This document shows, piece by piece, positions 7,612 through 57,845 of a DNA stretch of 64,000 bases. Location of the stretch: positions 143,999 to 207,998 of the forward strand of contig CAZYMH010000001.1 of the NCBI GenBank assembly GCA_964648105.1, in the 5' to 3' direction. Origin of the DNA: an uncultured Candidatus Saccharibacteria bacterium. GTDB lineage: Bacteria > Patescibacteriota > Saccharimonadia > Saccharimonadales > 2-12-FULL-41-12. The notes under the pieces were generated by a model that saw nothing but the letters and a program-made list of their open reading frames with translations, was not told where the DNA came from and searched no databases. The number at the start of each line of letters is the position of its first letter. Within the stretch, counting starts at the first letter, position 1. The translations under genes were made by a program, and so were the position numbers.

Positions 7612-7807
7612 AATTTCTCCTTTTGTTTTAGATATCAGTTTGGCTTTATATAAGCAGAGTCACTATCACTTCATTATCTAGCTTAAGCCGAAGCTGAAAA
7701 TTCAAATTAATTAATTAAAATCAGCTAGTAAATTGTCTAGTTAGTACACCTCTCACTAGCTTTAATACTTATTATACAGTATGTTTTGATTTAGTTGGCC
7801 TAAATGA

Positions 7808-8197
7808 CTATTTTTTGGGAGTAGTAATGTGAGGATCAGCTCCATAAATCGGTAAAACTTCGACTTGCGGGTGTGCTTTTAGTCCCGTTAGGGCAACTGC
7901 TTGCCAATTTTCTCCAGTTGCTGATTGCGTAGGAATATTAAGCGAAAAACACAGGCTATTTACTAACGAGGCTCCAATTCTTAATCCCGTAAAACTACCA
8001 GGACCCTCATAAAATATCACCCCTGTTAAATCCGAGTATTTCAGATTTTTTTGACCTAAAATATTATCTATTTGGTCAAAAATAGTTTCGCTTAGTTCGC
8101 GGTGAGCCTGCCAAGTTTGGTAGATTATTTGTTGGCCATTTTCTTGGTATAAACCTACTTCAGCCACTGGGTTATCGGTGCGAATACTCAAAATCAT
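7808..8197 (-). CDS. tsaB: tRNA t6A37 biosynthesis protein TsaB (short form)
   Basis: 129 aa with GPGSFTGLRIG. It overlaps tsaE by 4 nt. It is much shorter than typical TsaB (about 230 aa), keeping only the N-terminal ASKHA half. Confidence 0.7.
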   Translation of the reverse strand: MILSIRTDNPVAEVGLYQENGQQIIYQTWQAHRELSETIFDQIDNILGQKNLKYSDLTGVIFYEGPGSFTGLRIGASLVNSLCFSLNIPTQSATGENWQAVALTGLKAHPQVEVLPIYGADPHITTPKK

Positions 8198-8628
8198 GCT
8201 AGCTCGCCAATTCGTAAATTATCAATTTCAAAAAGTCGTGAATCGTTATCTTGTAATGAAATATGTATTTTAACAGGCTGGAGTTTGTCTAAAATACGCG
8301 TATTTTCGGCCCACTCAAGGAGCAAAATATCGTTTGGCTGTTTCATTTCGGCGATTTCATGCTCAATCAATTTATCGTCATTTAAGCGATAAAAATCACA
8401 GTGGTGAATGGTCCGCTGACCTGCTTTATATTGGTTACAAACTGTAAATGTCGGACTAGAAACATGATCAAAACTACCGAGCGACCGCACCAGATACCGT
8501 ACAAAGGTTGTTTTACCCGCTCCTACGTCACCTATCAACTCAATTACTTCACCACCTGTTAAACTAACTGCTACAAGTTTAGCTAGCTCGGCTGTTTGCG
8601 ATTCTTCTTTTATTTCGAATTTGTACAT
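8194..8628 (-). CDS. tsaE: tRNA t6A37 biosynthesis ATPase TsaE
   Basis: 144 aa with P-loop GDVGAGKTTFVR and the SPTFT motif. Confidence 0.85.
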   Translation of the reverse strand: MYKFEIKEESQTAELAKLVAVSLTGGEVIELIGDVGAGKTTFVRYLVRSLGSFDHVSSPTFTVCNQYKAGQRTIHHCDFYRLNDDKLIEHEIAEMKQPNDILLLEWAENTRILDKLQPVKIHISLQDNDSRLFEIDNLRIGELA

Positions 8629-8689
8629 TATAAACCGATTATAACAGATGACGCCCTAATACAGTTTGTAAGCGTTGTATAATAAAATT

Positions 8690-9214
8690 ATGCTTAAATT
8701 ATACGAGAATTTTCCAGGCACGCTTGTATTGTCATTAAGGGTTGGGCGACCAGTTGCAGAAGTGATTGAGCCGATCATCAACCCCAACAACCTGTTCATT
8801 GAAGGCTGGCGGGTCACAGATAATCAATCTAGAGATGTGCTAGTTTTGCTGACTCAAGATATACGCGAATTACTTTCAAAAGGCATAGCGATAGATGATT
8901 TTGATGTTTTGAGCGACGAAAAGGAGCTGATTCGACTAAAAAACATCACCAAATTAAAATTTCAGTTACTTGGCTTAAAGGTTGTTGATGAAAATGGTCA
9001 AAATTATGGCAAGGTTGTTGATTTTGCCTTCGAAACCAAGAGTTTTTATATCAAGAAAATTTACGCGGCACAGCCAATTATCAAAAGTATTTCTGGCAAA
9101 AGTCTAACGATTGACCGAACACAAATTATTGAGATAACTGACAAACGAATTGTTATTGAAGCACCTGTCGTAAAAGACCAAGAAACCAGTCTAGCCGCCG
9201 TCCCCGCAAGCTAA
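8690..9214 (+). CDS. Hypothetical protein (possibly PRC-barrel-like)
   Basis: The track ORF starts at TTG 8675, which lies inside a TATAAT-like string. ATG at 8690 (MLKLYENF...) is the more likely start. No firm motif. Confidence 0.35.
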   Translation: MLKLYENFPGTLVLSLRVGRPVAEVIEPIINPNNLFIEGWRVTDNQSRDVLVLLTQDIRELLSKGIAIDDFDVLSDEKELIRLKNITKLKFQLLGLKVVDENGQNYGKVVDFAFETKSFYIKKIYAAQPIIKSISGKSLTIDRTQIIEITDKRIVIEAPVVKDQETSLAAVPAS

Positions 9215-9264: not shown

Positions 9265-9864
9265 TTACTGCTCCGATAATGCAGTTTTGATGTCGTTATA
9301 GCCGAAGCCTTGGCGGGCGAGGTAGGCGATTAGTTTTTGGTCGTCTTGATAGCGAGTTTGGCTACGTTTTTTGGCAATAATTTGTTTTATTAAAGCTGAT
9401 TCATCGGTTTGGTCATCATCTAAAACTTTTTTAATAATGTTGCTATCGATACCTTTTTGGCGAAGCTCTAGGGCTAGCTTGCGTCGACTGCTAGATTTTA
9501 ACAAACGTCGGTTGTCTACCCATCGCTTAGCAAAATCAAAATCATCGATTAATTTCAAATTACTTAACTTGTTAAGTAATTTTGTAATTTCGGCTTTGTC
9601 ATCTGTTTTGCGAGCTAAATAATCGTTAATTTCACGCTGGCTACGCGGCCTACGAGCAATTAAATTCAGTACTAAACTATATAATTTGTCAGTGGCCGAT
9701 AACTTTTTTAGACTGTCAAGTTGGCTAGAATTAACTTCTTGGCCGATATTTATCCCTGAGTCAAGTAGCCCAGTTTCGCTTAGTCCAAAAGCAAATTTAC
9801 CATCGATAAAAATTGAATATCTACTAGCTACTTTTACCTGCTTTTTTATATCGGTGATTTTCAC
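9265..9864 (-). CDS. recX: RecX-like regulatory protein
   Basis: 199-aa basic, helical-repeat protein in the recA operon, with repeated ...L..KG/L.RQGF... segments typical of RecX. Confidence 0.7.
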   Translation of the reverse strand: MKITDIKKQVKVASRYSIFIDGKFAFGLSETGLLDSGINIGQEVNSSQLDSLKKLSATDKLYSLVLNLIARRPRSQREINDYLARKTDDKAEITKLLNKLSNLKLIDDFDFAKRWVDNRRLLKSSSRRKLALELRQKGIDSNIIKKVLDDDQTDESALIKQIIAKKRSQTRYQDDQKLIAYLARQGFGYNDIKTALSEQ

Positions 9865-10349
9865 TTTTTTGGATAAAACTTGACTGCTAATTTAGCGTCT
9901 TCGTCGTTTTCTACTCGACAAATTGGGTTATTTATTGGACCCATTTCTAGCCAAGATTCAGGTGGTAGTGCTAACAAATAGCCATCTACTCTTAACCTAG
10001 GAGTTGTTTGGTTAGCTAATGCTATCTGCCCTAAGCCTTTACTTTTTCTGAACGACTCAATTCTTGGGCGAAAATTTTCAGCCGAAGTTTCAACTATTCT
10101 GCATATACTAACTATTGTCACATCGTCATAGACACCTTCGCCGACTATCGATAAGGCTGTTTTCTCGCCGCTTTTGTTAGCCGACCAAGCACGTTTATTG
10201 CTGATTATATAAGGTGCTATAAAATCTAGACGATCTTGCGAAAAATAGATATGAACTGCTTTGGCTCTATTGTCGATAATTTCTCGCCGAGCCGTAATAC
10301 CAAATGTTTCTGGAGTCCATATTGTTCCGATTTTTTCCCCACTCAACAT
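9861..10349 (-). CDS. Hypothetical protein embedded between recA and recX
   Basis: 162-aa ORF. It overlaps recX by 4 nt and sits 4 nt after the recA stop. No motif recognised. Confidence 0.4.
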   Translation of the reverse strand: MLSGEKIGTIWTPETFGITARREIIDNRAKAVHIYFSQDRLDFIAPYIISNKRAWSANKSGEKTALSIVGEGVYDDVTIVSICRIVETSAENFRPRIESFRKSKGLGQIALANQTTPRLRVDGYLLALPPESWLEMGPINNPICRVENDEDAKLAVKFYPKK

Positions 10350-31158: not shown

Positions 31159-31371
31159 TATTTTTTAATCATTAATATACTAATATAAAAAGAATTAAAG
31201 GTTATGAAAAAGAAAACAACTCGTTCTAGAAGCAAAGTCAATTTGTTTCAATCAAATAGTCAAAGAAAAGGTGTCGGTAGAAAGTCTCTTTTTTTTGGTT
31301 CTAAGTTAGTTATGCTAGCCACCATGGTAGTTATTGTCGGTGTGGTATTGGGGGCTTTTGCTATATTACAG
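31159..31371 (+). repeat. Repeat A copy 1 (213 bp: 45 bp upstream region plus first 56 codons)
   Basis: Base-for-base identical by eye to 32993-33205 (offset 1834 bp). Confidence 0.9.
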
Positions 31372-32907
31372 AAGTCTAGAGGGTCGAATGCGGCGGTAGG
31401 CGATGTAGTGCCTGTCAACTGTAGTAAAACTGTTAGTGGTGGAGCCAGTGTGGCATCATCAATCAGTGGAATGGCTAACGGGCAAACTCTATGTCTAAGT
31501 GGCACATTTAATATGGGTGCAGTCAAAGTCAGCAATAGTGGCATTACAATTGCTTCAACACCTGGTCAACAGGCTACTCTTAATGGACAATTTAATATAA
31601 GTGGTAGTAATAACAAATTTTTGAACCTAAAAATTGATGGCCGTGGTGTGAACTCAGGTACAATCTTGCTTTATAGTGGAGCAAATAACAACTTATTTAA
31701 AGCTAATGACGTTACATCGACTGCTCCTAACAAATCTTCGACAGACCAAAACGACCGACAAGGAATTTGCTTTAACATCGGTGAATCTGGTGCTGTAGCT
31801 GCCTCTGGTCCTCAAAACACCACAATCGAACAAAACAGAATATTTAACTGTGGTTGGGGCAAATATGACCAAGCTCTATACCTTGCAGGTGCAAGATACA
31901 CTCGAGTAGTCAATAACTTTATATACGACAACCCAATGTTCGGTTTGCAGTTCTTCCCTGATAGCGATAATGCGACAGTTGAAAATAACGTGTTTTACAA
32001 CAACGCTGCTGGAGTTACATTCTCTAGTGGATTCGGCAAACAATCTGAAAATAACATTCTTCGAAATAATATTATCGGCAACAGCGGTGGCAACTACTAT
32101 GGTATGGGCTACAAAGACTCTACCTCTTGGGGTGCAGCCGATGTTAATCACTGGTGGGGTTCAGGTACAGGTGCTGGCAACCAAGCAACTGGTAACTGTC
32201 TATTTGGTAGAGGCATAGAAAGTAATCCTGACGGCTACACAGTAAGTAATAATACTAAAGTTAGTGACCCTATGTTTATCAATGCTGGTGGCAAAGACTT
32301 CGGCTTAAAAGCTGGCAGCCCCTGCACTGGCAAAGGTATCCAAACTTCATCATCGACTAATCCAACTAGCACAAGTCCCACTCCAACCCCTACCTCGCCA
32401 ACTACGACTTCTCCAACACCGACTACACCAACTCCTACAAGTCCAACTCCACAATCTCCAACAGGCAGTCTAAACTTCAAAAACTTCACACCTTGGACAG
32501 CTTATGAAGGTTACGACTTAAAGAATGATGGTAAGACTATAACTAGAAATAACACCGATACTTTACTAGTAAAGTACAACAAAGGTACTTGGGCTAATGG
32601 ACATTATGGTGGTTACTGTATAACTCGAGCTGCTGGTAGTCCTCAACCTAAGTCAATCACCTTTACTGCTGAATACAACAGTTGGGGTGGCAACAGTGTC
32701 TACTTCTACCCTGGAAGTTCTAACAATAAGAAATGGGTAGTTGGTAATACTTATGGCGTAACCAAGAAGAGTACTCAAACAGTTACTTTAGGTACAGAGA
32801 CCAAATACTGTTTCGGTAACGTAGTTAACTTCCCAAGTGGTGCAGCCTTCTCAAGCTTTGACAACGACAGGTTCCTAAAAGTTACTGGCTATACCTTCAA
32901 TTACTAG
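31204..32907 (+). CDS. Secreted/anchored right-handed beta-helix (PbH1-repeat, pectate-lyase-fold) protein with P/T linker and unassigned C-terminal domain
   Basis: 567 aa. A basic tail plus TM signal anchor comes first. It is followed by repeated NN-I/V-x-x-N beta-helix rungs (VVNNFIYDN, VENNVFYNN, LRNNIIGN). Next is a TSPTPTPTSPTTTSPTPTTPTPTSPTP linker, then a ~145-aa C-terminal domain ending TGYTFNY. Confidence 0.7.
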   Translation: MKKKTTRSRSKVNLFQSNSQRKGVGRKSLFFGSKLVMLATMVVIVGVVLGAFAILQKSRGSNAAVGDVVPVNCSKTVSGGASVASSISGMANGQTLCLSGTFNMGAVKVSNSGITIASTPGQQATLNGQFNISGSNNKFLNLKIDGRGVNSGTILLYSGANNNLFKANDVTSTAPNKSSTDQNDRQGICFNIGESGAVAASGPQNTTIEQNRIFNCGWGKYDQALYLAGARYTRVVNNFIYDNPMFGLQFFPDSDNATVENNVFYNNAAGVTFSSGFGKQSENNILRNNIIGNSGGNYYGMGYKDSTSWGAADVNHWWGSGTGAGNQATGNCLFGRGIESNPDGYTVSNNTKVSDPMFINAGGKDFGLKAGSPCTGKGIQTSSSTNPTSTSPTPTPTSPTTTSPTPTTPTPTSPTPQSPTGSLNFKNFTPWTAYEGYDLKNDGKTITRNNTDTLLVKYNKGTWANGHYGGYCITRAAGSPQPKSITFTAEYNSWGGNSVYFYPGSSNNKKWVVGNTYGVTKKSTQTVTLGTETKYCFGNVVNFPSGAAFSSFDNDRFLKVTGYTFNY

Positions 32908-32911
32908 ATTA

Positions 32912-32956
32912 AATGCCTGTGCTTACCTTTTAGGCACAGGCATTGTTACTTTTTTA
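32912..32956 (+). terminator. Rho-independent terminator after the beta-helix gene
   Basis: AATGCCTGTGC (32912-32922) pairs with GCACAGGCATT (32934-32944), followed by a T-rich run. Confidence 0.75.
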
Positions 32957-32992
32957 AAGCTTAAGCGGTTTACATATACTGACTATCCATGG

Positions 32993-33205
32993 TATTTTTT
33001 AATCATTAATATACTAATATAAAAAGAATTAAAGGTTATGAAAAAGAAAACAACTCGTTCTAGAAGCAAAGTCAATTTGTTTCAATCAAATAGTCAAAGA
33101 AAAGGTGTCGGTAGAAAGTCTCTTTTTTTTGGTTCTAAGTTAGTTATGCTAGCCACCATGGTAGTTATTGTCGGTGTGGTATTGGGGGCTTTTGCTATAT
33201 TACAG
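32993..33205 (+). repeat. Repeat A copy 2
   Basis: Identical to 31159-31371. The encoded N-termini are identical for 56 aa. Confidence 0.9.
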
Positions 33206-34468
33206 CATTCAAGAGATTCTAAGGCAGCGACAGGCATGATTCTCAACATACCATTTGATACTGACTTTTCTGGTCAGGGTTTACAACGAGTGTCATCTGA
33301 CAGACTACGGATTGTTTCTCAAGCGGATAATGGCGTAAAGCCTGTGCAAGGTGCTGGTATGGCTCGTATTGAACTCCGAAAGGGAGATAATCCACTAGCT
33401 CAGTGGTGTTGTGCTAATACTGCTAGAAGTGAGTTTACTACTCAGACTAACGAACAGAAGGGTGAGAATCGTTGGTACTCTTGGTCATCAATGTTTGATC
33501 CAACCTTCCCAAGTTATCCAACTCAACCGGCAAATGGTGGCTGGCAAATATTCTTACAGTGGCATGGTAATGACAGTGTATCACCACCAATGGCCTTCTT
33601 TGCCTCCAATGATAATATTGCTCTTGGGGTAAGTGATGGTTCTAGATGGAATTACTATTGGCAAGCTCCCATGAATCGTGGTTCATGGCACAACTTTAAA
33701 ATGCACGTAACCTGGGGAGACTCAGGAAGAATTGAACTATGGCATAACGGTAGTAAAGTACTAGATAAGTCTGGGGTTGATAACATTACTAGTCCTCCAC
33801 TATATGTAAAAGGCGGTATGTACAGAAATGATGATTTAGCAAAGACAGCTATTTTATATATGGATAGCTTTAAGATGGCTTGGGACGAAGCATCGCTTGG
33901 TAGTGTACCAACTAATAATACTGGTACACCAGTTGTACCTACGCAGACCGCACCAGCTCCTACACCCACAGTAGAGACCAACACTGCTAGTCCTAGCCCA
34001 GCTCCTACACCCGTAGCGACATCATCTACACTTGCTCCCAACGACTGGTCAAAATGGGAAAAAGGCGAAGGAGTGGTTAACAGTACAGTTTCAACACCCA
34101 TGACACTAAGTAACAGCAGAAATCTTTTGGTACAATTCGATAGCAACAAAAGGGGTTATAAATCCAATCAATATGGCAGATATTGTATTGCACGACCAGC
34201 CGGGTCAGCAGTTCCTAAATCTATAACCTTCACAGCTAATGTAAACGCGAAATATGGTAACACAGTTTACTTCTATGCAGATGATTCTGATAAGAAATTA
34301 TGGACTATAGATAATACTGGCGGTAAAACACAGTCAAAGACCGCAACAGTTACTCTTGGTCAACAGTCTAGATACTGCTTTGGTAATGTATCGATTCCAA
34401 GCTTTGGTAATAGTACATATGGCAGCAGTCGGTTGATTCAGGTCACCAACTATAAATTTAACTACTAA
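33038..34468 (+). CDS. Secreted/anchored concanavalin-like polysaccharide lyase-family (PF14099-like) protein with P/T linker and C-terminal domain homologous to that of 31204-32907
   Basis: 476 aa. The core contains WYSWSSMF, WQIFLQWHG, SWHNFKMHVTW..G.IELWHNG and YVKGGMYR, typical of the heparin-lyase-like/PL20-type fold. The C-terminus carries YCIARPAG...SITFTA...YCFGNV...VTNYKFNY. Confidence 0.65.
   Translation: MKKKTTRSRSKVNLFQSNSQRKGVGRKSLFFGSKLVMLATMVVIVGVVLGAFAILQHSRDSKAATGMILNIPFDTDFSGQGLQRVSSDRLRIVSQADNGVKPVQGAGMARIELRKGDNPLAQWCCANTARSEFTTQTNEQKGENRWYSWSSMFDPTFPSYPTQPANGGWQIFLQWHGNDSVSPPMAFFASNDNIALGVSDGSRWNYYWQAPMNRGSWHNFKMHVTWGDSGRIELWHNGSKVLDKSGVDNITSPPLYVKGGMYRNDDLAKTAILYMDSFKMAWDEASLGSVPTNNTGTPVVPTQTAPAPTPTVETNTASPSPAPTPVATSSTLAPNDWSKWEKGEGVVNSTVSTPMTLSNSRNLLVQFDSNKRGYKSNQYGRYCIARPAGSAVPKSITFTANVNAKYGNTVYFYADDSDKKLWTIDNTGGKTQSKTATVTLGQQSRYCFGNVSIPSFGNSTYGSSRLIQVTNYKFNY
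33188..33946 (+). repeat. Repeat B copy 1 (759 bp, lyase-like core)
   Basis: Base-for-base identical by eye to 34673-35431 (offset 1485 bp). The out-of-frame track ORFs 33411-33632 and 34896-35117 are identical, which corroborates this. Confidence 0.9.
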
Positions 34469-34564
34469 AAACTTAATAAATAAACCTCGAAGAAACTTCT
34501 AGGTTAACAAACTAAGGTGTATAGTAATCTTATATATGAGTTTTGAAAAATAATTGAAGCTAAA

Positions 34565-36370
34565 ATGAAATCCAATAGTCAACAAAAAGGTGTAGGCAGA
34601 AAATCCCTACTATTTAGCTCCAAATTAGTAATGTTGGCTATGGCATTAATAATTATTGGTGCAGCCTTTGGAGCTTTTGCTATATTACAGCATTCAAGAG
34701 ATTCTAAGGCAGCGACAGGCATGATTCTCAACATACCATTTGATACTGACTTTTCTGGTCAGGGTTTACAACGAGTGTCATCTGACAGACTACGGATTGT
34801 TTCTCAAGCGGATAATGGCGTAAAGCCTGTGCAAGGTGCTGGTATGGCTCGTATTGAACTCCGAAAGGGAGATAATCCACTAGCTCAGTGGTGTTGTGCT
34901 AATACTGCTAGAAGTGAGTTTACTACTCAGACTAACGAACAGAAGGGTGAGAATCGTTGGTACTCTTGGTCATCAATGTTTGATCCAACCTTCCCAAGTT
35001 ATCCAACTCAACCGGCAAATGGTGGCTGGCAAATATTCTTACAGTGGCATGGTAATGACAGTGTATCACCACCAATGGCCTTCTTTGCCTCCAATGATAA
35101 TATTGCTCTTGGGGTAAGTGATGGTTCTAGATGGAATTACTATTGGCAAGCTCCCATGAATCGTGGTTCATGGCACAACTTTAAAATGCACGTAACCTGG
35201 GGAGACTCAGGAAGAATTGAACTATGGCATAACGGTAGTAAAGTACTAGATAAGTCTGGGGTTGATAACATTACTAGTCCTCCACTATATGTAAAAGGCG
35301 GTATGTACAGAAATGATGATTTAGCAAAGACAGCTATTTTATATATGGATAGCTTTAAGATGGCTTGGGACGAAGCATCGCTTGGTAGTGTACCAACTAA
35401 TAATACTGGTACACCAGTTGTACCTACGCAGCCACCGCCACAGCAGCAACAACGTAAACCTTACCTAGGCAATAATTGGCCGATACCTGGCAAGATCGAA
35501 GCTGAAAACTACGACGAAGGTGGTGAGGGTGTAGCTTATCATGATTTGAGTTCTTCAAATCAGGGCGGCAAATATCGTTCTGACGGGGTAGATATAGAAA
35601 ATTCTAGCGAGGGAGGCTTTAATGTTGGGTGGAACGAACCAGGTGAGTGGCAAGAATATACAGCTAACGTACAGGCTGGCAAATACAACATAGACATGAG
35701 AGTTGGATCAGCTATTGCTACAGGTAAAATCACCTTAAAACTAGACGGTACAACAATCGCAACTGCCAATATTCCTAACACTGGTGAGTGGCAAAAATAC
35801 CAAACAATTAGCTTACAAAATATTAGCCTACCTGGAGGCAATGGTAAAAAACTACGAGCTGAGGTAACAGGCTCTTCCTATACACTTAATTGGATAAACT
35901 TTAGTCTGGTCTCTTCTAGCCAACAGCCGGGAGGACCTATTACACCGCCAACAACTCCACCAAATAACCCAACCAATCCAAGCTCGGTTCCACTTGTTAC
36001 TATTGCTGGATCAGGGGTTAATAAAATTGTACCTATACCCAATACAGTCAAACCTAACCAGTCTGGACAATTCATTGCTGATTTTGATGGTGATGGTAAT
36101 AATGATGTAGCAGTCGATATAAATGGTGACGGCAACATCGATACTTCCTCTGAGCTAATCACCAACTTTGATAACCAATATGATAGCCCGCAAATTGTTC
36201 AAGGTGAAAAAATACCAAATAATTATATTGATATTGGTATTGGCCCACTGCCCGAAACAAAAGTATCTAAAAAGTTACTTTACTTATTTGCAACTATTCA
36301 AGCCCTATCTCTAACTGCATTTTCAGCAAAATTATATTCACAAAAATTAGCAAGATTAATCAAGTCTTAA
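34565..36370 (+). CDS. Anchored polysaccharide lyase-family core plus CBM6-like carbohydrate-binding module, P-rich linker and C-terminal hydrophobic tail
   Basis: 601 aa. The core is identical to 33038-34468. It is followed by GKIEAENYDEGGEGVAYHDLS...GEWQEY...GEWQKY (CBM6/35-type), then PGGPITPPTTPPNNPTNP, then DGDGNNDVAVDINGDGNID (a Ca-binding-like loop). The C-terminal hydrophobic segment is LLYLFATIQALSLTAF. Confidence 0.65.
   Translation: MKSNSQQKGVGRKSLLFSSKLVMLAMALIIIGAAFGAFAILQHSRDSKAATGMILNIPFDTDFSGQGLQRVSSDRLRIVSQADNGVKPVQGAGMARIELRKGDNPLAQWCCANTARSEFTTQTNEQKGENRWYSWSSMFDPTFPSYPTQPANGGWQIFLQWHGNDSVSPPMAFFASNDNIALGVSDGSRWNYYWQAPMNRGSWHNFKMHVTWGDSGRIELWHNGSKVLDKSGVDNITSPPLYVKGGMYRNDDLAKTAILYMDSFKMAWDEASLGSVPTNNTGTPVVPTQPPPQQQQRKPYLGNNWPIPGKIEAENYDEGGEGVAYHDLSSSNQGGKYRSDGVDIENSSEGGFNVGWNEPGEWQEYTANVQAGKYNIDMRVGSAIATGKITLKLDGTTIATANIPNTGEWQKYQTISLQNISLPGGNGKKLRAEVTGSSYTLNWINFSLVSSSQQPGGPITPPTTPPNNPTNPSSVPLVTIAGSGVNKIVPIPNTVKPNQSGQFIADFDGDGNNDVAVDINGDGNIDTSSELITNFDNQYDSPQIVQGEKIPNNYIDIGIGPLPETKVSKKLLYLFATIQALSLTAFSAKLYSQKLARLIKS
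34673..35431 (+). repeat. Repeat B copy 2
   Basis: Identical to 33188-33946. Confidence 0.9.
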
Positions 36371-37473: not shown

Positions 37474-37492
37474 ACCTCTATATAATACAAAA

Positions 37493-37519
37493 CTAGCACT
37501 CCATATTCAAGAGTGCTAG
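37493..37519 (-). promoter_or_regulatory. CIRCE operator (HrcA site) upstream of dnaJ
   Basis: CTAGCACTC-CATATTCAA-GAGTGCTAG. This matches the consensus TTAGCACTC-N9-GAGTGCTAA apart from the outermost position of each arm. It lies 20 nt upstream of the dnaJ start. Confidence 0.8.
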
Positions 37520-41209: not shown

Positions 41210-41358
41210 TGGATTTTTCCTTTCGTATTTTTGTTAAACTAGTCTGCCAACATGTATCTATACTTTACAGATCAAAGCTTAACAAAACATTATATTAATT
41301 TATTAAATTTCATTATTAATTGTTAGCACTCACATGCTACTACTGCTAGTTTAGCGAA

Positions 41359-41385
41359 TTAGCACTCTCATGTCAAGAGTGCTAA
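41359..41385 (-). promoter_or_regulatory. CIRCE operator (perfect consensus) upstream of dnaK
   Basis: TTAGCACTC-TCATGTCAA-GAGTGCTAA. A degenerate second copy lies at 41323-41349: TTAGCACTC-ACATGCTAC-TACTGCTAG. Confidence 0.85.
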
Positions 41386-43370: not shown

Positions 43371-43382
43371 TATTATAACTTT

Positions 43383-43409
43383 TTGGCACTCAATAATCAA
43401 GAGTGCTAA
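43383..43409 (-). promoter_or_regulatory. CIRCE operator upstream of hrcA-grpE
   Basis: TTGGCACTC-AATAATCAA-GAGTGCTAA, with one mismatch to consensus. Confidence 0.8.
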
Positions 43410-51666: not shown

Positions 51667-51706
51667 CTAACAGATTGAATCTATGGTATATTGTTATAAT
51701 TAAATT

Positions 51707-51773
51707 AGATATGGCAGCGTAGCTCAGTTGGAGAGTCCTCAGCTAATAAAATTATAAAATGCTCTAACCAACT
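51707..51773 (+). pseudogene. tRNA-Met gene debris: duplicated 5' fragment plus inverted D-arm fragment
   Basis: AGATATGGCAGCGTAGCTCAGTTGG (51707-51731) repeats 51827-51851 exactly, 120 bp upstream. It decays after the D-loop. TGCTCTAACCAACT (51760-51773) is the exact reverse complement of tRNA positions 51846-51859. Confidence 0.7.
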
Positions 51774-51832
51774 AGTTCATCGATATGATTTAATTCACCT
51801 ATATAATTTCATGATATGATTAATTAAGATAT

Positions 51833-51909
51833 GGCAGCGTAGCTCAGTTGGTTAGAGCACAGGACTCATAAGCCTGGGGTCACTGGTTCAAATCCAGTCG
51901 CTGCTACCA
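51833..51909 (+). tRNA. tRNA-Met, elongator type (anticodon CAU), CCA encoded
   Basis: GGCAGCGTAGCTCAGTTGGTTAGAGCACAGGACTCATAAGCCTGGGGTCACTGGTTCAAATCCAGTCGCTGCTACCA. The D-arm and variable region closely resemble classical elongator tRNA-Met. A lysidine-modified tRNA-Ile2 cannot be fully excluded. Confidence 0.85.
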
Positions 51910-53015: not shown

Positions 53016-53613
53016 AGCTATGATAGAACTAAACTTGCTTTAATAAGGCGTCTACTTTGTGCAGAGCTGGATTCTCTGTCTCCGAGAATTCGTATGACAT
53101 TACAACTGATTTCATAATTTTTGTTTTTCCTTTTCTTTCATGAGTAGTCGAGAAGTTTGCAATTATTTTTACATAACGCAAACTTCTCTTTTAGAAGAGT
53201 TCCTCATGTTTTATCAACTTCTTACGAATGCTAAAGGCCAAATTTCTATCTTGTAGCTAAAAGCTAAAGAAGAGAATTAATTTAGTAGCAAAAACCGCAA
53301 AATTACTACTAAAATTGCTTGAAGCCCAATATAAATATTTGGCTAGCTAAGAAATTGGTGTTGATATTTTTGTTTTAGTCGACTAACACTTACTATTATA
53401 CACAAAAAGAGAAAAATGTCAAGTATCAAAAACCGCAAAATGATACTTAAACGCTGTATATAAATCGTATTTTATTTTTATTTTTGTTTTTGTACGACTA
53501 CACCCCTAGTTTAATAAAGCTTAATCATTTTTGCAAGCAAAAAATAAAATAACTTTTCCACCGTTTCAAATCTTATAAAATATCTAAATCAATGTTTGGA
53601 CGATTTTTATATA

Positions 53614-53874: not shown

Positions 53875-53914
53875 CCAATAAACCTAACATTTGCTCTTTT
53901 TCTTCGTAAAAAAA

Positions 53915-54097
53915 ACAAAAACCTATCCGAAGGATGGGATCTTGTTATGCGAAAAGGGGGCAGGACTCGGTCACCTTCGGCGACCCCGTCGCAACTTCTT
54001 TGCAAAACCAGTTTGCAAGAGTTGTCTCCCTTGCAGACTGCCACTGGCAGTCTTCACCTGCGACCTTTTTTGCGTCGGAGATTCGAGCCTGACTCCG
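53915..54097 (-). ncRNA. Candidate structured RNA / tRNA-fMet-derived element (unknown class)
   Basis: This GC-rich island has open ORFs in several frames, which are artefacts. It contains the tRNA-fMet 3' half (53956-53969 = 54144-54157; 54056-54067 = 54159-54170) split by an 86-nt insert. The insert carries perfect hairpins, for example AGACUGCC-AGU-GGCAGUCU and UUGCAAA-CUGG-UUUGCAA. The element ends in a CCCAUCC-UUCG-GGAUAGG hairpin plus U-run at about 53915-53945. Strand assignment is tentative. Confidence 0.35.
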
Positions 54098-54129
54098 TAC
54101 AAAAACAAAACTCCAGACAAGCTGGAGTT
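54098..54129 (-). terminator. Hairpin terminator directly after tRNA-fMet (could act on both strands)
   Basis: AACTCCAG (54109-54116) pairs with CTGGAGTT (54122-54129). The minus strand reads a TTTTGTTTTTG run after it. The plus strand reads CTATTTTT. Confidence 0.6.
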
Positions 54130-54136
54130 CTATTTT

Positions 54137-54211
54137 TGGTAGCGGGGGCAGGACTCGAACCTGCGACCTTGTGGTTATGAGCCACACGAGCTGCCACTGC
54201 TCTACCCCGCG
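54137..54211 (-). tRNA. Initiator-type tRNA-fMet (anticodon CAU), CCA encoded
   Basis: Reverse complement reads CGCGGGGTAGAGCAGTGGCAGCTCGTGTGGCTCATAACCACAAGGTCGCAGGTTCGAGTCCTGCCCCCGCTACCA. It has the CGCGGGG 5' end with an unpaired position 1 (C1:U72), as in bacterial initiators. The anticodon stem has only two G-C pairs next to the loop. Confidence 0.8.
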
Positions 54212-54356
54212 ATAATATAAATGTAGGATTCAATTCAACCCCTTTTAGTCCTAAATATATTAGCAAACAGGGGTGTATTTGTCAACTCTAGGCATTTAAA
54301 TAGATAGTTTAGAGGCAAATATAAAACTTGCCCCTAAAATCTAACTTCTTAGTAAA

Positions 54357-57569: not shown

Positions 57570-57845
57570 ATGAACCCCGAAAATCAGATAAACGAGCGGG
57601 TCGAAGTACTGGTTGGCTACTACAAAAACTGCGATGCTAGCCAAATTGCTCAACCCCTCAAAATGAAATACAAAAACCGCGAAATTATATTTAGTGAACT
57701 GGGCCTGCGTCACCCTACAATGCAAGGCAAACGTATGATTCATGTCTTTGATATGAGCGATGGTGTGAATGATTATCGCCTAGAATTTGACGCCGAAGGC
57801 CTAACCTGGACACTGCGAGAAGTAGGTTGCTATGCACTTAATTAA
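57570..57845 (+). CDS. Hypothetical small protein immediately upstream of the Y-family polymerase
   Basis: 91-aa ORF preceded by AAAGAGG. No recognisable motif. Confidence 0.4.
   Translation: MNPENQINERVEVLVGYYKNCDASQIAQPLKMKYKNREIIFSELGLRHPTMQGKRMIHVFDMSDGVNDYRLEFDAEGLTWTLREVGCYALN

Follow-up and report, generated by a model that had tools for sequence, protein, structure and literature searches.

A short structured element was found behind the initiator transfer RNA gene (tRNA-fMet) in a 64 kb stretch of Saccharibacteria DNA, referred to here as the window. The element, the type A module, is about 160 nt long plus flanking terminators, and it carries three hairpins, P4, P5 and P6, within the T-loop of a partial tRNA copy. 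At least nine lineages of the Saccharimonadales (TM7), that of the window included, carry it downstream of tRNA-fMet, and comparison of the nine members shows that the hairpins are maintained by compensatory substitutions. The nine-lineage family is undescribed in Rfam and in the literature searched, and it is probably a structured RNA. The explanation that we favor, at about even probability, is a maintained RNA of the tRNA sense, which would be made by read-through and would end at a second intrinsic terminator, term2.

Constraint on a hairpin domain in a split tRNA copy

Evidence of constraint comes from a model-based alignment of the nine members. Standard pairs are formed by 92.6% of the pair cells, against 34-44% when the partners are slid by 1-3 columns. 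Seventeen of the 33 pairs have changed on both sides, and the observed covariation was reached by none of 500 column shuffles. The first hairpin, P4 (54035-54053, minus strand, as are all features of the locus given below), has the form AGACUGCC-AGU-GGCAGUCU with an invariant GA just before it; 4 of its 8 pairs changed on both sides and 100% of its cells are paired. A junction GCAAG (54030-54034), kept in eight of nine members, leads to P5 (53992-54024), a 14-bp bulged hairpin with hypervariable stems, in which 10 of 13 aligned pairs changed on both sides and the apical AACUKGUU is conserved (UUGCAAA-CUGG-UUUGCAA at the tip in the window copy). The last hairpin, P6 (GGUCGCC-GAA-GGUGACC, 53969-53985), abuts the right-hand tRNA block; three of its seven pairs covary, and one G.U pair is present in eight of nine members. 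Unpaired nucleotides are kept as well, namely GA, GCAAG, GAGU and the P5 loop. Cells with G.U outnumber those with A.C on the tRNA-sense strand by 12 to 3, mainly because of the single P6 pair. The retention of the P5 bulges and of the P6 G.U pair argues against mere homogenization of palindromes and for the tRNA-sense strand. The GC content of the module is 55%, compared with 29-30% in flanking intergenic DNA and 39% in the window. Conserved structure with compensatory substitutions, by which structured RNAs are generally recognized, is found in the module. A coding sequence was considered and dropped, as no open reading frame (ORF) is conserved across the members and the stop-free stretches vary in frame and strand.

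The members were found by pattern scans and profile searches, and a covariance model built from all nine sequences scores 102-165 bits over them (cmsearch). In the following, W denotes the copy in the window and L-numbers denote the related loci or contigs compared with it. A scan of species-representative genomes with the pattern GGTCGCAGGT-N71-101-CGAGTCCTGCC gave at least 119 matches; among those listed, most are tandem tRNA genes or chance occurrences in GC-rich DNA, and only L034 and L124, from metagenome-assembled genomes of Saccharimonadales / Saccharibacteria, are true members. L132, L133, L135, L136 and L138 lie on metagenome contigs. The ninth, L140, is the only locus syntenic with W, with a bactofilin-like gene, a 190-aa gene, tRNA-fMet and the module in the same order. 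The bactofilin-like proteins of the two loci are 46% identical, and the surrounding intergenic DNA is by eye not alignable. Among the loci reached through bactofilin homologues, L140 alone kept the gene order, which is absent in L141-L145. The sequence of W is not an assembly artefact, since it is identical in the independent Logan assemblies L001/L008 and L007 as far as those contigs extend.

The arrangement at the locus is as follows. The tRNA gene (54137-54211; ARAGORN and Infernal, 63.8 bits) has a CAT anticodon, a C1xU72 mismatch and an encoded CCA end. It is read as the initiator tRNA because positions 1 and 72 are unpaired and CCA is encoded, and its sequence is identical in related species. 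It is preceded by a promoter, TTGACA-17-TAATAT (54257-54285), and the same TTGACA...CCYCTGTTTG...TAnnAT is found upstream of tRNA-fMet in L034, L135, L128 and L140. Behind the gene, term1 (54098-54137) is an intrinsic terminator of the bidirectional type, composed of an A-tract, a hairpin (54109-54129) and a U-tract; L034, L132 and L140 have homologous hairpins, in which the loop is of the GCUUGUC type and the stem shows compensatory changes. It is followed by an antisense piece (54074-54097), a degenerate reverse-complement copy of the tRNA 3' half with the ideal sequence UGGUAGCGGGGGCAGGACUCGAACCUGCGACC, which is found in all relatives of the W module. The inner part of this piece builds a helix, P3, with the sense copy, and the outer part is able to pair with the 3' arm. 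An A-rich spacer (54066-54073) forms the P3 loop and, in W, can also pair with the diverged 3' tail.

The sense copy consists of two blocks. The left block, AAGGUCGCAGGU (54056-54067), holds the variable loop, the 5' T-stem strand and U54. The right block, CGAGUCCUGCCCCC (53956-53969), comprises T-loop positions 56-60, the T-stem strand on the 3' side and the first part of the acceptor strand, and it is, by the comparison described below, the original tRNA 3' end. On the plus strand, 53956-53969 equals 54144-54157 of the tRNA gene (GGGGGCAGGACTCG, 14 nt) and 54056-54067 equals 54159-54170 (ACCTGCGACCTT, 12 nt), a repeat about 100 bp downstream of tRNA-fMet for which 0.21 and 0.06 chance matches are expected in the window with 1-2 mismatches allowed. 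The blocks are separated by 1 nt (U55) inside the tRNA and by 86 nt (53970-54055) in the split copy. A diverged tail, UUUUCGCAUAACAAG (53941-53955), takes the place of GCUACCA and the AUAAGCA trailer of relatives, and it is followed by term2 (53908-53940), an intrinsic terminator on the tRNA-sense strand with a hairpin (53922-53938) and a U-run.

An earlier, sequence-only reading of this stretch had described the duplicated blocks, the 86-nt insertion that splits the T-loop, three hairpins and the two bounding terminators. All of these proved correct, with the hairpins redrawn as given above, and the T-arm-like string that it saw in the opposite orientation is the antisense piece. The 9-mer CAGUGGCAG, which it noted as D-loop-like, matches the D-loop no better than expected by chance (blastn E = 12), and relatives have not retained it. 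That reading had also held that the split copy is no normal tRNA and had found no fit to the tmRNA, SRP, RNase P or 6S signatures; both statements agree with our searches. Scans of the window region and six related loci against Rfam 15, at gathering and at permissive E-value thresholds, gave only tRNA at threshold, and no weak match on the module is shared among W, L132, L133 and L136. As a tRNA (RF00005; a full cloverleaf with a 7-nt T-loop, and at least 29 bits in Infernal or a call by ARAGORN), only 54137-54211 was called; the split copy has no tRNA 5' half and no canonical acceptor stem, and its T-loop is interrupted by 86 nt. Transfer-messenger RNA (tmRNA), standard or two-piece, was rejected, since ARAGORN made no call in the window or related loci, Rfam gave none, and the module has no conserved ORF that could serve as a tag reading frame. 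The acceptor strand is of the tRNA-fMet type (G70, C71), unlike the G3.U70 of tmRNA. YrlA or bacterial Y RNA was likewise rejected, with a best Rfam score of 21.7 bits (E = 0.05) against a gathering score of 69; the match (54086-54185) rests on the T-arm of the real tRNA and on term1, outside the module. A search of the literature for a published Saccharibacteria RNA or a T-loop insertion returned nothing relevant.

In the tRNA sense, the order of a type A module is term1, antisense piece, short spacer, GGUCGCAGGU, GA, P4, P5, P6, (C)GAGUCCUGCCCCCGCUACCA, trailer and term2, and the junction GGU/GA.../CGAGUCC (GGT/GA.../CGAGTCC in DNA) is common to all nine members. Two mutually exclusive helices can close the hairpin domain, the T-stem GCAGG/CCUGC and P3, in which antisense CUGCGAC pairs with sense GUCGCAG. 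Neither of them covaries, because both are nearly invariant; in L140, two C-to-U changes preserve both through G.U pairs. Pairing between the outer antisense piece and the 3' arm is better than in shuffled sequences at p <= 0.03 in five of nine members (W, p = 0.027), and L135 is borderline (p = 0.057). A tertiary contact of the P4 loop or GCAAG with the P5 loop, for which pairing is possible in most members, was dropped because it shows no covariation; the change between CUUG and CUGG is uncompensated.

An intrinsic terminator on the tRNA strand lies directly behind the module in seven of the nine loci (W, L034, L124, L132, L135, L136 and L140), while L133 and L138 continue into further modules. 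Different neighbors follow downstream: W has an 86-aa membrane ORF, L140 a gene for a beta-helix protein and L124 a gene on the opposite strand. The sole homologue found for the 86-aa ORF (P0121) is on a non-syntenic contig, and a search beyond the Logan contig break gave no record matching the PLD-like protein. The position of the module between a highly expressed gene and downstream genes, bracketed by two terminators, would suit a cis-acting platform whose hairpins, with term2, serve only to terminate or process the strong transcript of tRNA-fMet before the next gene is reached, or form a riboswitch-like leader of that gene. We consider such a role very unlikely. P4-P6 have no U-tracts, a backup terminator needs neither a tRNA-identical arm nor conserved junction nucleotides, and a leader for a conserved downstream gene is not to be expected because the downstream genes differ in identity and strand among the members.

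Insertion history of the tRNA-fMet T-loop

The relatives of W show where the split copy came from. The full end CCCCCGC(U/A)ACCA is kept in five of them and a sixth has UCA for CCA, whereas the CCA end of the split copy is missing in W, L133 and L138. The absence of CCA reported in the sequence-only reading is therefore correct for W and two other members and is not a general trait. In L132, L136 and L140, the CCA is followed by AUAAGCA... and then by a CUCUG/CAGGG terminator, both homologous to the native tRNA-fMet trailer and terminator of L128. This homology shows, at the level of sequence comparison, that the 3' arm, trailer and terminator of the module are the original 3' end of the tRNA gene, displaced by a segment of about 190 bp that was inserted into the T-loop. 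The segment entered between nucleotides 54 and 56 and brought with it a new stretch from the T-loop to CCA, which replaced the old one, as well as term1, the antisense piece and P4-P6. The present 3' end of the tRNA-fMet gene (54137-54211) would accordingly be the copy that the insertion brought.

The T-loop of tRNA-fMet is a recurrent insertion point, as a comparison of L133 with L138 shows. The two sequences are identical rightwards from T/CGAGUCC...CCA-term1 into the type A module, and their leftward difference starts exactly within the T-loop. To the left of the shared T, L133 has the tRNA body and L138 has about 1.6 kb, made up of a new 3' end, a dienelactone-hydrolase (DLH) gene, a decayed tRNA end and a second kind of scaffold, type B. 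Later insertions, some with a single cargo gene, thus appear at the same position. A single gene also precedes the module in L136 (a nucleotide kinase) and in L132 (an OsmC protein); an intact tRNA-fMet lies upstream of the kinase gene in L136, and the L132 contig ends before any tRNA. In both loci, the tRNA-end relic nearer the tRNA has decayed, and by direct reading the L136 relic retains a likeness to the tRNA 3' end at 9 of 21 nt. The 3' arm of the module matches the tRNA at 21 of 21 nt in both, and in L136 it should be an older displaced copy than the decayed relic. Two rare variants in the tRNA of L135, G45 and A72, recur in its module. The intact L136 arm and the shared L135 variants imply that the arm is kept tRNA-like by selection or conversion.

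The type B scaffold was observed at 8481-8645 of L138 and at about 2150-2196 of L133, on the minus strand in both. It is likewise fused to CGAGUCCUGCCCCCGCUACCA and has an antisense T-arm piece, a P4-like hairpin (AACAUGCC-GGU-GGCAUGUU) and two further hairpins, with a model score of 30.9 bits. In L138 type B, a 12-bp antisense:sense helix is the only possible closure. More tRNA-fMet fragments occur in L135 (2480-2545), L136 (about 1880-1975, minus) and L138 (about 9690-10000, minus), including a promoter motif TTGAC...CYCTGTT that runs straight into GGTTCGAGT and a conserved relic that ends in GGGCTACCA and a terminator. The downstream side of tRNA-fMet in these three loci is a graveyard of rearranged gene fragments.

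Possible signs of exchange between lineages are seen inside the module as well. Mean pairwise identity is 0.46 for P5 and 0.79 for P3 plus P4, and different segments give incongruent similarity patterns. L133 and L138 are near-identical up to GCAAG and diverge from P5 onward. The Logan contigs L001/L008 and L007 (SRR13355620, SRR13355622) end at about 54026-54030, a few bases from the same GCAAG/P5 boundary. Together, the contig ends and the L133/L138 divergence suggest co-existing P5 alleles or a recombination breakpoint.

These observations bear on whether the module could be a non-functional scar. Template switching at the tRNA and terminator hairpins would have produced a sense-antisense-sense triplication, quasi-palindrome correction would keep the hairpins perfect, and recent DNA exchange would account for the spread of similarity. 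The mosaic segment similarities are consistent with this, as are the additional fragments and promoter-to-T-loop fusions in L135, L136 and L138. The layout also occurs twice in the window. An elongator-type tRNA-Met gene (51833-51909, plus strand) is preceded by a direct repeat of its promoter region and opening 19 nt at 51692-51742 (exact 19-mer, 51713-51731), and an inverted copy of its D-arm (51760-51773) lies between the direct copy and the gene, so that the region 51692-51909 repeats the sense-antisense-sense pattern of the tRNA-fMet locus. Tandem inversion duplications likewise yield three copies, the second of them inverted, that join at short palindromes (here a terminator loop and the P3 loop). 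Products of this kind are unstable and not under selection, whereas the module has been kept, with covariation, in nine diverged lineages that retain its architecture, the P5 bulges, the P6 G.U pair and the unpaired nucleotides, all of which palindrome correction would erase or ignore. The 86-nt insert shows no sign of decay, an adjacent and apparently younger displaced tRNA end has decayed beside an intact module, and the GC content stands 25 points above that of the surrounding intergenic DNA. A mere scar is, in our judgement, quite improbable.

The sequence-only reading had offered two ideas, an attachment scar with an inserted miniature element and a novel tRNA-derived noncoding RNA (ncRNA), and both are partly right. 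The scar idea stands as to origin, given the native-trailer homology and the T-loop insertions that distinguish L133 from L138, and it fails as to a repeated miniature element. Miniature inverted-repeat transposable elements are scattered over unrelated sites of a genome in many copies, which have terminal inverted repeats and, as a rule, a target-site duplication. The module is present once in the window and as one strong copy per related locus (nhmmer, cmsearch), always at the tRNA-fMet T-loop junction and with no target duplication. The ncRNA idea gains from the conservation in nine lineages, the covariation, the G.U pair, the GC enrichment and the sense-strand terminator in seven of nine; transcription itself is a prediction from these features. 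The example given in that reading, a decoy for factors that bind the initiator tRNA, would be a conjecture, and the module has no canonical acceptor stem.

A direct repeat of the tRNA 3' part behind an intact gene, extending through the 3' end as in an attachment repeat, is found here, and in five relatives the identity runs through CCA. The closest known counterpart is the tycheposons of Prochlorococcus, integrative elements that leave partial-tRNA direct repeats at tRNA genes (bioRxiv 10.1101/2020.12.28.424599). In both cases, copies of the 3' part stand behind an intact tRNA gene that the incoming DNA has restored, each new insertion moves the earlier ones outward, and decayed partial tRNAs pile up (bioRxiv 10.1101/2020.12.28.424599). 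Small cargo genes between the repeats, here in the relatives of W, are a further likeness. The module differs in that its bounded segment is only about 190 bp, with no integrase in it or in the related loci examined. Its junction lies inside the T-loop and carries a covarying three-hairpin domain and an antisense tRNA half, and the oldest displaced end is the best conserved one. Set against known insertions, the tiny segment for which no recombinase was found, the antisense copy of the target and the covarying three-hairpin junction in nine lineages are new. The module is a partial-tRNA repeat at an insertion hot spot that became, or carries, a structured module.

A probable RNA product or a possible recombination module

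Folding, most likely as RNA, would be the reason for which the module is maintained. Since no promoter was found for the module itself, it would be transcribed by read-through, with the tRNA-fMet promoter (54257-54285) as the likely source. A transcript would pass term1 from this strong promoter, or start from a cargo-gene promoter where one intervenes, and would end at term2. The resulting trailer RNA would be stable and GC-rich and would display a three-hairpin head, with the tRNA-identical 3' arm held in the T-stem or in a duplex with the antisense piece. More tentatively, the head may be a binding platform for a protein or an RNA. The arm might mimic the 3' strand of the acceptor/T-arm of the initiator tRNA, and the RNA might conceivably have a trans-acting effect, either on a factor that handles tRNA-fMet or on the recombination for which the T-loop of that tRNA gene is used. 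Known tRNA-derived or tRNA-like ncRNAs include the tRNA-like domain of tmRNA, YrlA and Y-RNA-like RNAs, and small RNAs from 3' external transcribed spacers such as 3'ETS-leuZ. The module resembles these in its location in the trailer of a tRNA unit, its reuse of T-arm and acceptor sequence, the CCA in most members, and its GC-rich, structured character. It differs in having neither an acceptor stem with a 5' partner nor an intact T-loop.

Several points weigh against an RNA product. The lack of a promoter has been mentioned. Template-switch correction of DNA palindromes can mimic compensatory change. The family comprises nine sequences only, of which L133 and L138 are close relatives, and the counts come from an alignment that had itself been fitted to the model. 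The segment incongruence and the hypervariable P5 fit DNA exchange between lineages, which could inflate the apparent conservation. The T-stem and P3 compete as the helix that closes the hairpin domain, with no covariation for either, and the outer antisense:sense pairing is weak in L132, L136 and L140. Without a canonical acceptor stem, mimicry of tRNA is at best partial, and the CCA end is lost in W, L133 and L138.

Much of the same evidence can be viewed at the level of DNA. The antisense and sense copies could fold, as single-stranded DNA (ssDNA) or a cruciform, into a duplex replica of the T-arm/acceptor region with a hairpin head, serving as the attachment end of small non-autonomous cassettes mobilized by a recombinase encoded elsewhere. 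The covariation would then mirror DNA hairpins, by a logic like that of integron attC sites or the folded attP of CTX phage, and the junction of an excised circle would be P6 joined to TCGAGUCC...term1. Such a DNA module is a possible but rather unlikely explanation. It accords with the recurrence of insertions at one T-loop position and with the arrays of displaced 3' ends, each with its own terminator, in which single cargo genes (DLH hydrolase, nucleotide kinase, OsmC) stand between the tRNA and the module. The type B scaffold follows the same logic, with its antisense T-arm piece, P4-like hairpin and 12-bp antisense:sense helix. The mosaic segments and hypervariable P5 resemble the variable part of attC sites, and competence machinery for ssDNA uptake is encoded (type IV pilus genes, ComEC, RecA).

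On the other side, no Phage_integrase, Resolvase, transposase, reverse-transcriptase or TnpB domain was found among window ORFs of at least 150 aa, nor was an integrase, resolvase, transposase or reverse transcriptase seen in the genes examined or called around related loci. Five pattern scans did not find the module in 2.9 million viral contigs, and a covariance-model search of 80 viral loci fetched by the scans gave no module; 56 viral matches to the tRNA 3' half resemble complete phage tRNA-Met genes. A conserved G.U pair and terminators on the same strand would rather be expected of an RNA. The presence of one strong copy per locus and the syntenic position suggest vertical inheritance, which also counts against a DNA module.

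An integron attC site as such was rejected. These sites have R''/L''...L'/R' boxes with RYYYAAC and GTTRRRY cores, adjoining cassettes and an IntI in the genome. Direct reading of the nine sequences did not reveal the RYYYAAC/GTTRRRY consensus, and no IntI-like or other tyrosine-recombinase gene was found in the window. The likeness to attC and CTX attP lies in an imperfect inverted repeat that yields a duplex copy of a recombination target, in a structure that outlasts its sequence around a variable center, and in single-gene cassettes. The differences, apart from the consensus, are that the arms of the module are tRNA sequence and that its hairpin head sits at the presumed crossover point and not at the tip.

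A guide-type RNA was considered as well. P4-P6 would be the scaffold for a tRNA-identical segment of about 21 nt, as in the omega RNAs that transposons encode, or the module, with its sense and antisense target segments, would resemble an IS110 bridge RNA, and in either case a nuclease or recombinase would be steered to the tRNA-fMet T-loop. A scaffold followed by a tRNA-matching 3' segment, the representation of both target strands and the recurrent use of the T-loop for insertion suit this idea, as does an IS110-family transposase in a related contig, L142, away from tRNA-fMet. That gene (7784-8734), which encodes DEDD_Tnp_IS110 in a related Saccharibacteria contig, shows only that the group has such recombinases. 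Genes for TnpB, IscB or IS110 are absent from the window and from the immediate neighborhood of every member, and Rfam has no omega or bridge RNA family that the scaffold matches. A guide with the sequence of an essential single-copy gene would target its own genome. We regard this explanation as extremely improbable. In a broader form, the module would be the working part of an undescribed cassette-insertion system, in which a folded RNA (guide or bridge) or incoming ssDNA (attC-like) directs a recombinase encoded elsewhere to place small gene cassettes in the tRNA-fMet T-loop and supplies the replacement 3' end, by which the essential gene is preserved. This is a distinctly unlikely scenario. 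If true, the fold would display a duplex replica of the initiator-tRNA T-arm and acceptor region beside a hairpin head, and the system would be a way for Saccharibacteria, naturally competent and reduced in genome, to gain genes.

Saccharibacteria live as ultra-small epibionts and have reduced genomes; to our knowledge, very few regulatory RNAs or mobile elements have been described in them. If the favored explanation of a maintained RNA holds, the module is a structured RNA that is specific to the clade and was made out of the end that the single initiator-tRNA gene discarded. It would be an example of the birth of an RNA gene from a recombination by-product and would offer a way into the biology of initiator tRNA in the candidate phyla radiation. 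If the module instead acts as DNA, it marks a site-specific hot spot of gene insertion, where the single cargo genes vary from lineage to lineage and no integrase was found in the DNA examined, and bears on gene acquisition. The covariance model can be used now for annotating the element and finding strains that carry it.

Other features of the window

Proteins from the neighborhood of the locus find their best named homologues in Candidatus Saccharibacteria / Saccharimonadales. Among window ORFs of at least 150 aa, Pfam matches are to housekeeping and competence functions and include RecA, RuvABC, RNase Y, type IV pilus genes, DnaK/DnaJ, FtsH and ComEC, and several ORFs have no Pfam match. 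Three tandem paralogous genes with a common 300-nt repeat occupy 31204-36370; two have a polysaccharide-lyase domain (one also CBM6/35), and the first has a beta-helix domain. The motif TAGCACTC-N9-GAGTGCTA occurs three times (37491-37518, 41357-41384 and 43381-43408), upstream of dnaJ, dnaK and hrcA-grpE, and matches the CIRCE operator to which HrcA binds, an ordinary feature. A hairpin motif with the conserved loop UUUUGCGGUUUUUG is present on the minus strand at 53285-53311, 53423-53448 and 57671-57684, three copies against 0.13 expected. One of these hairpins abuts a perfect sigma-70 promoter, TTGACA-16-TATAAT (53422-53395, minus), and one lies upstream of a DinB-like gene; the motif may be an operator or a small RNA element.

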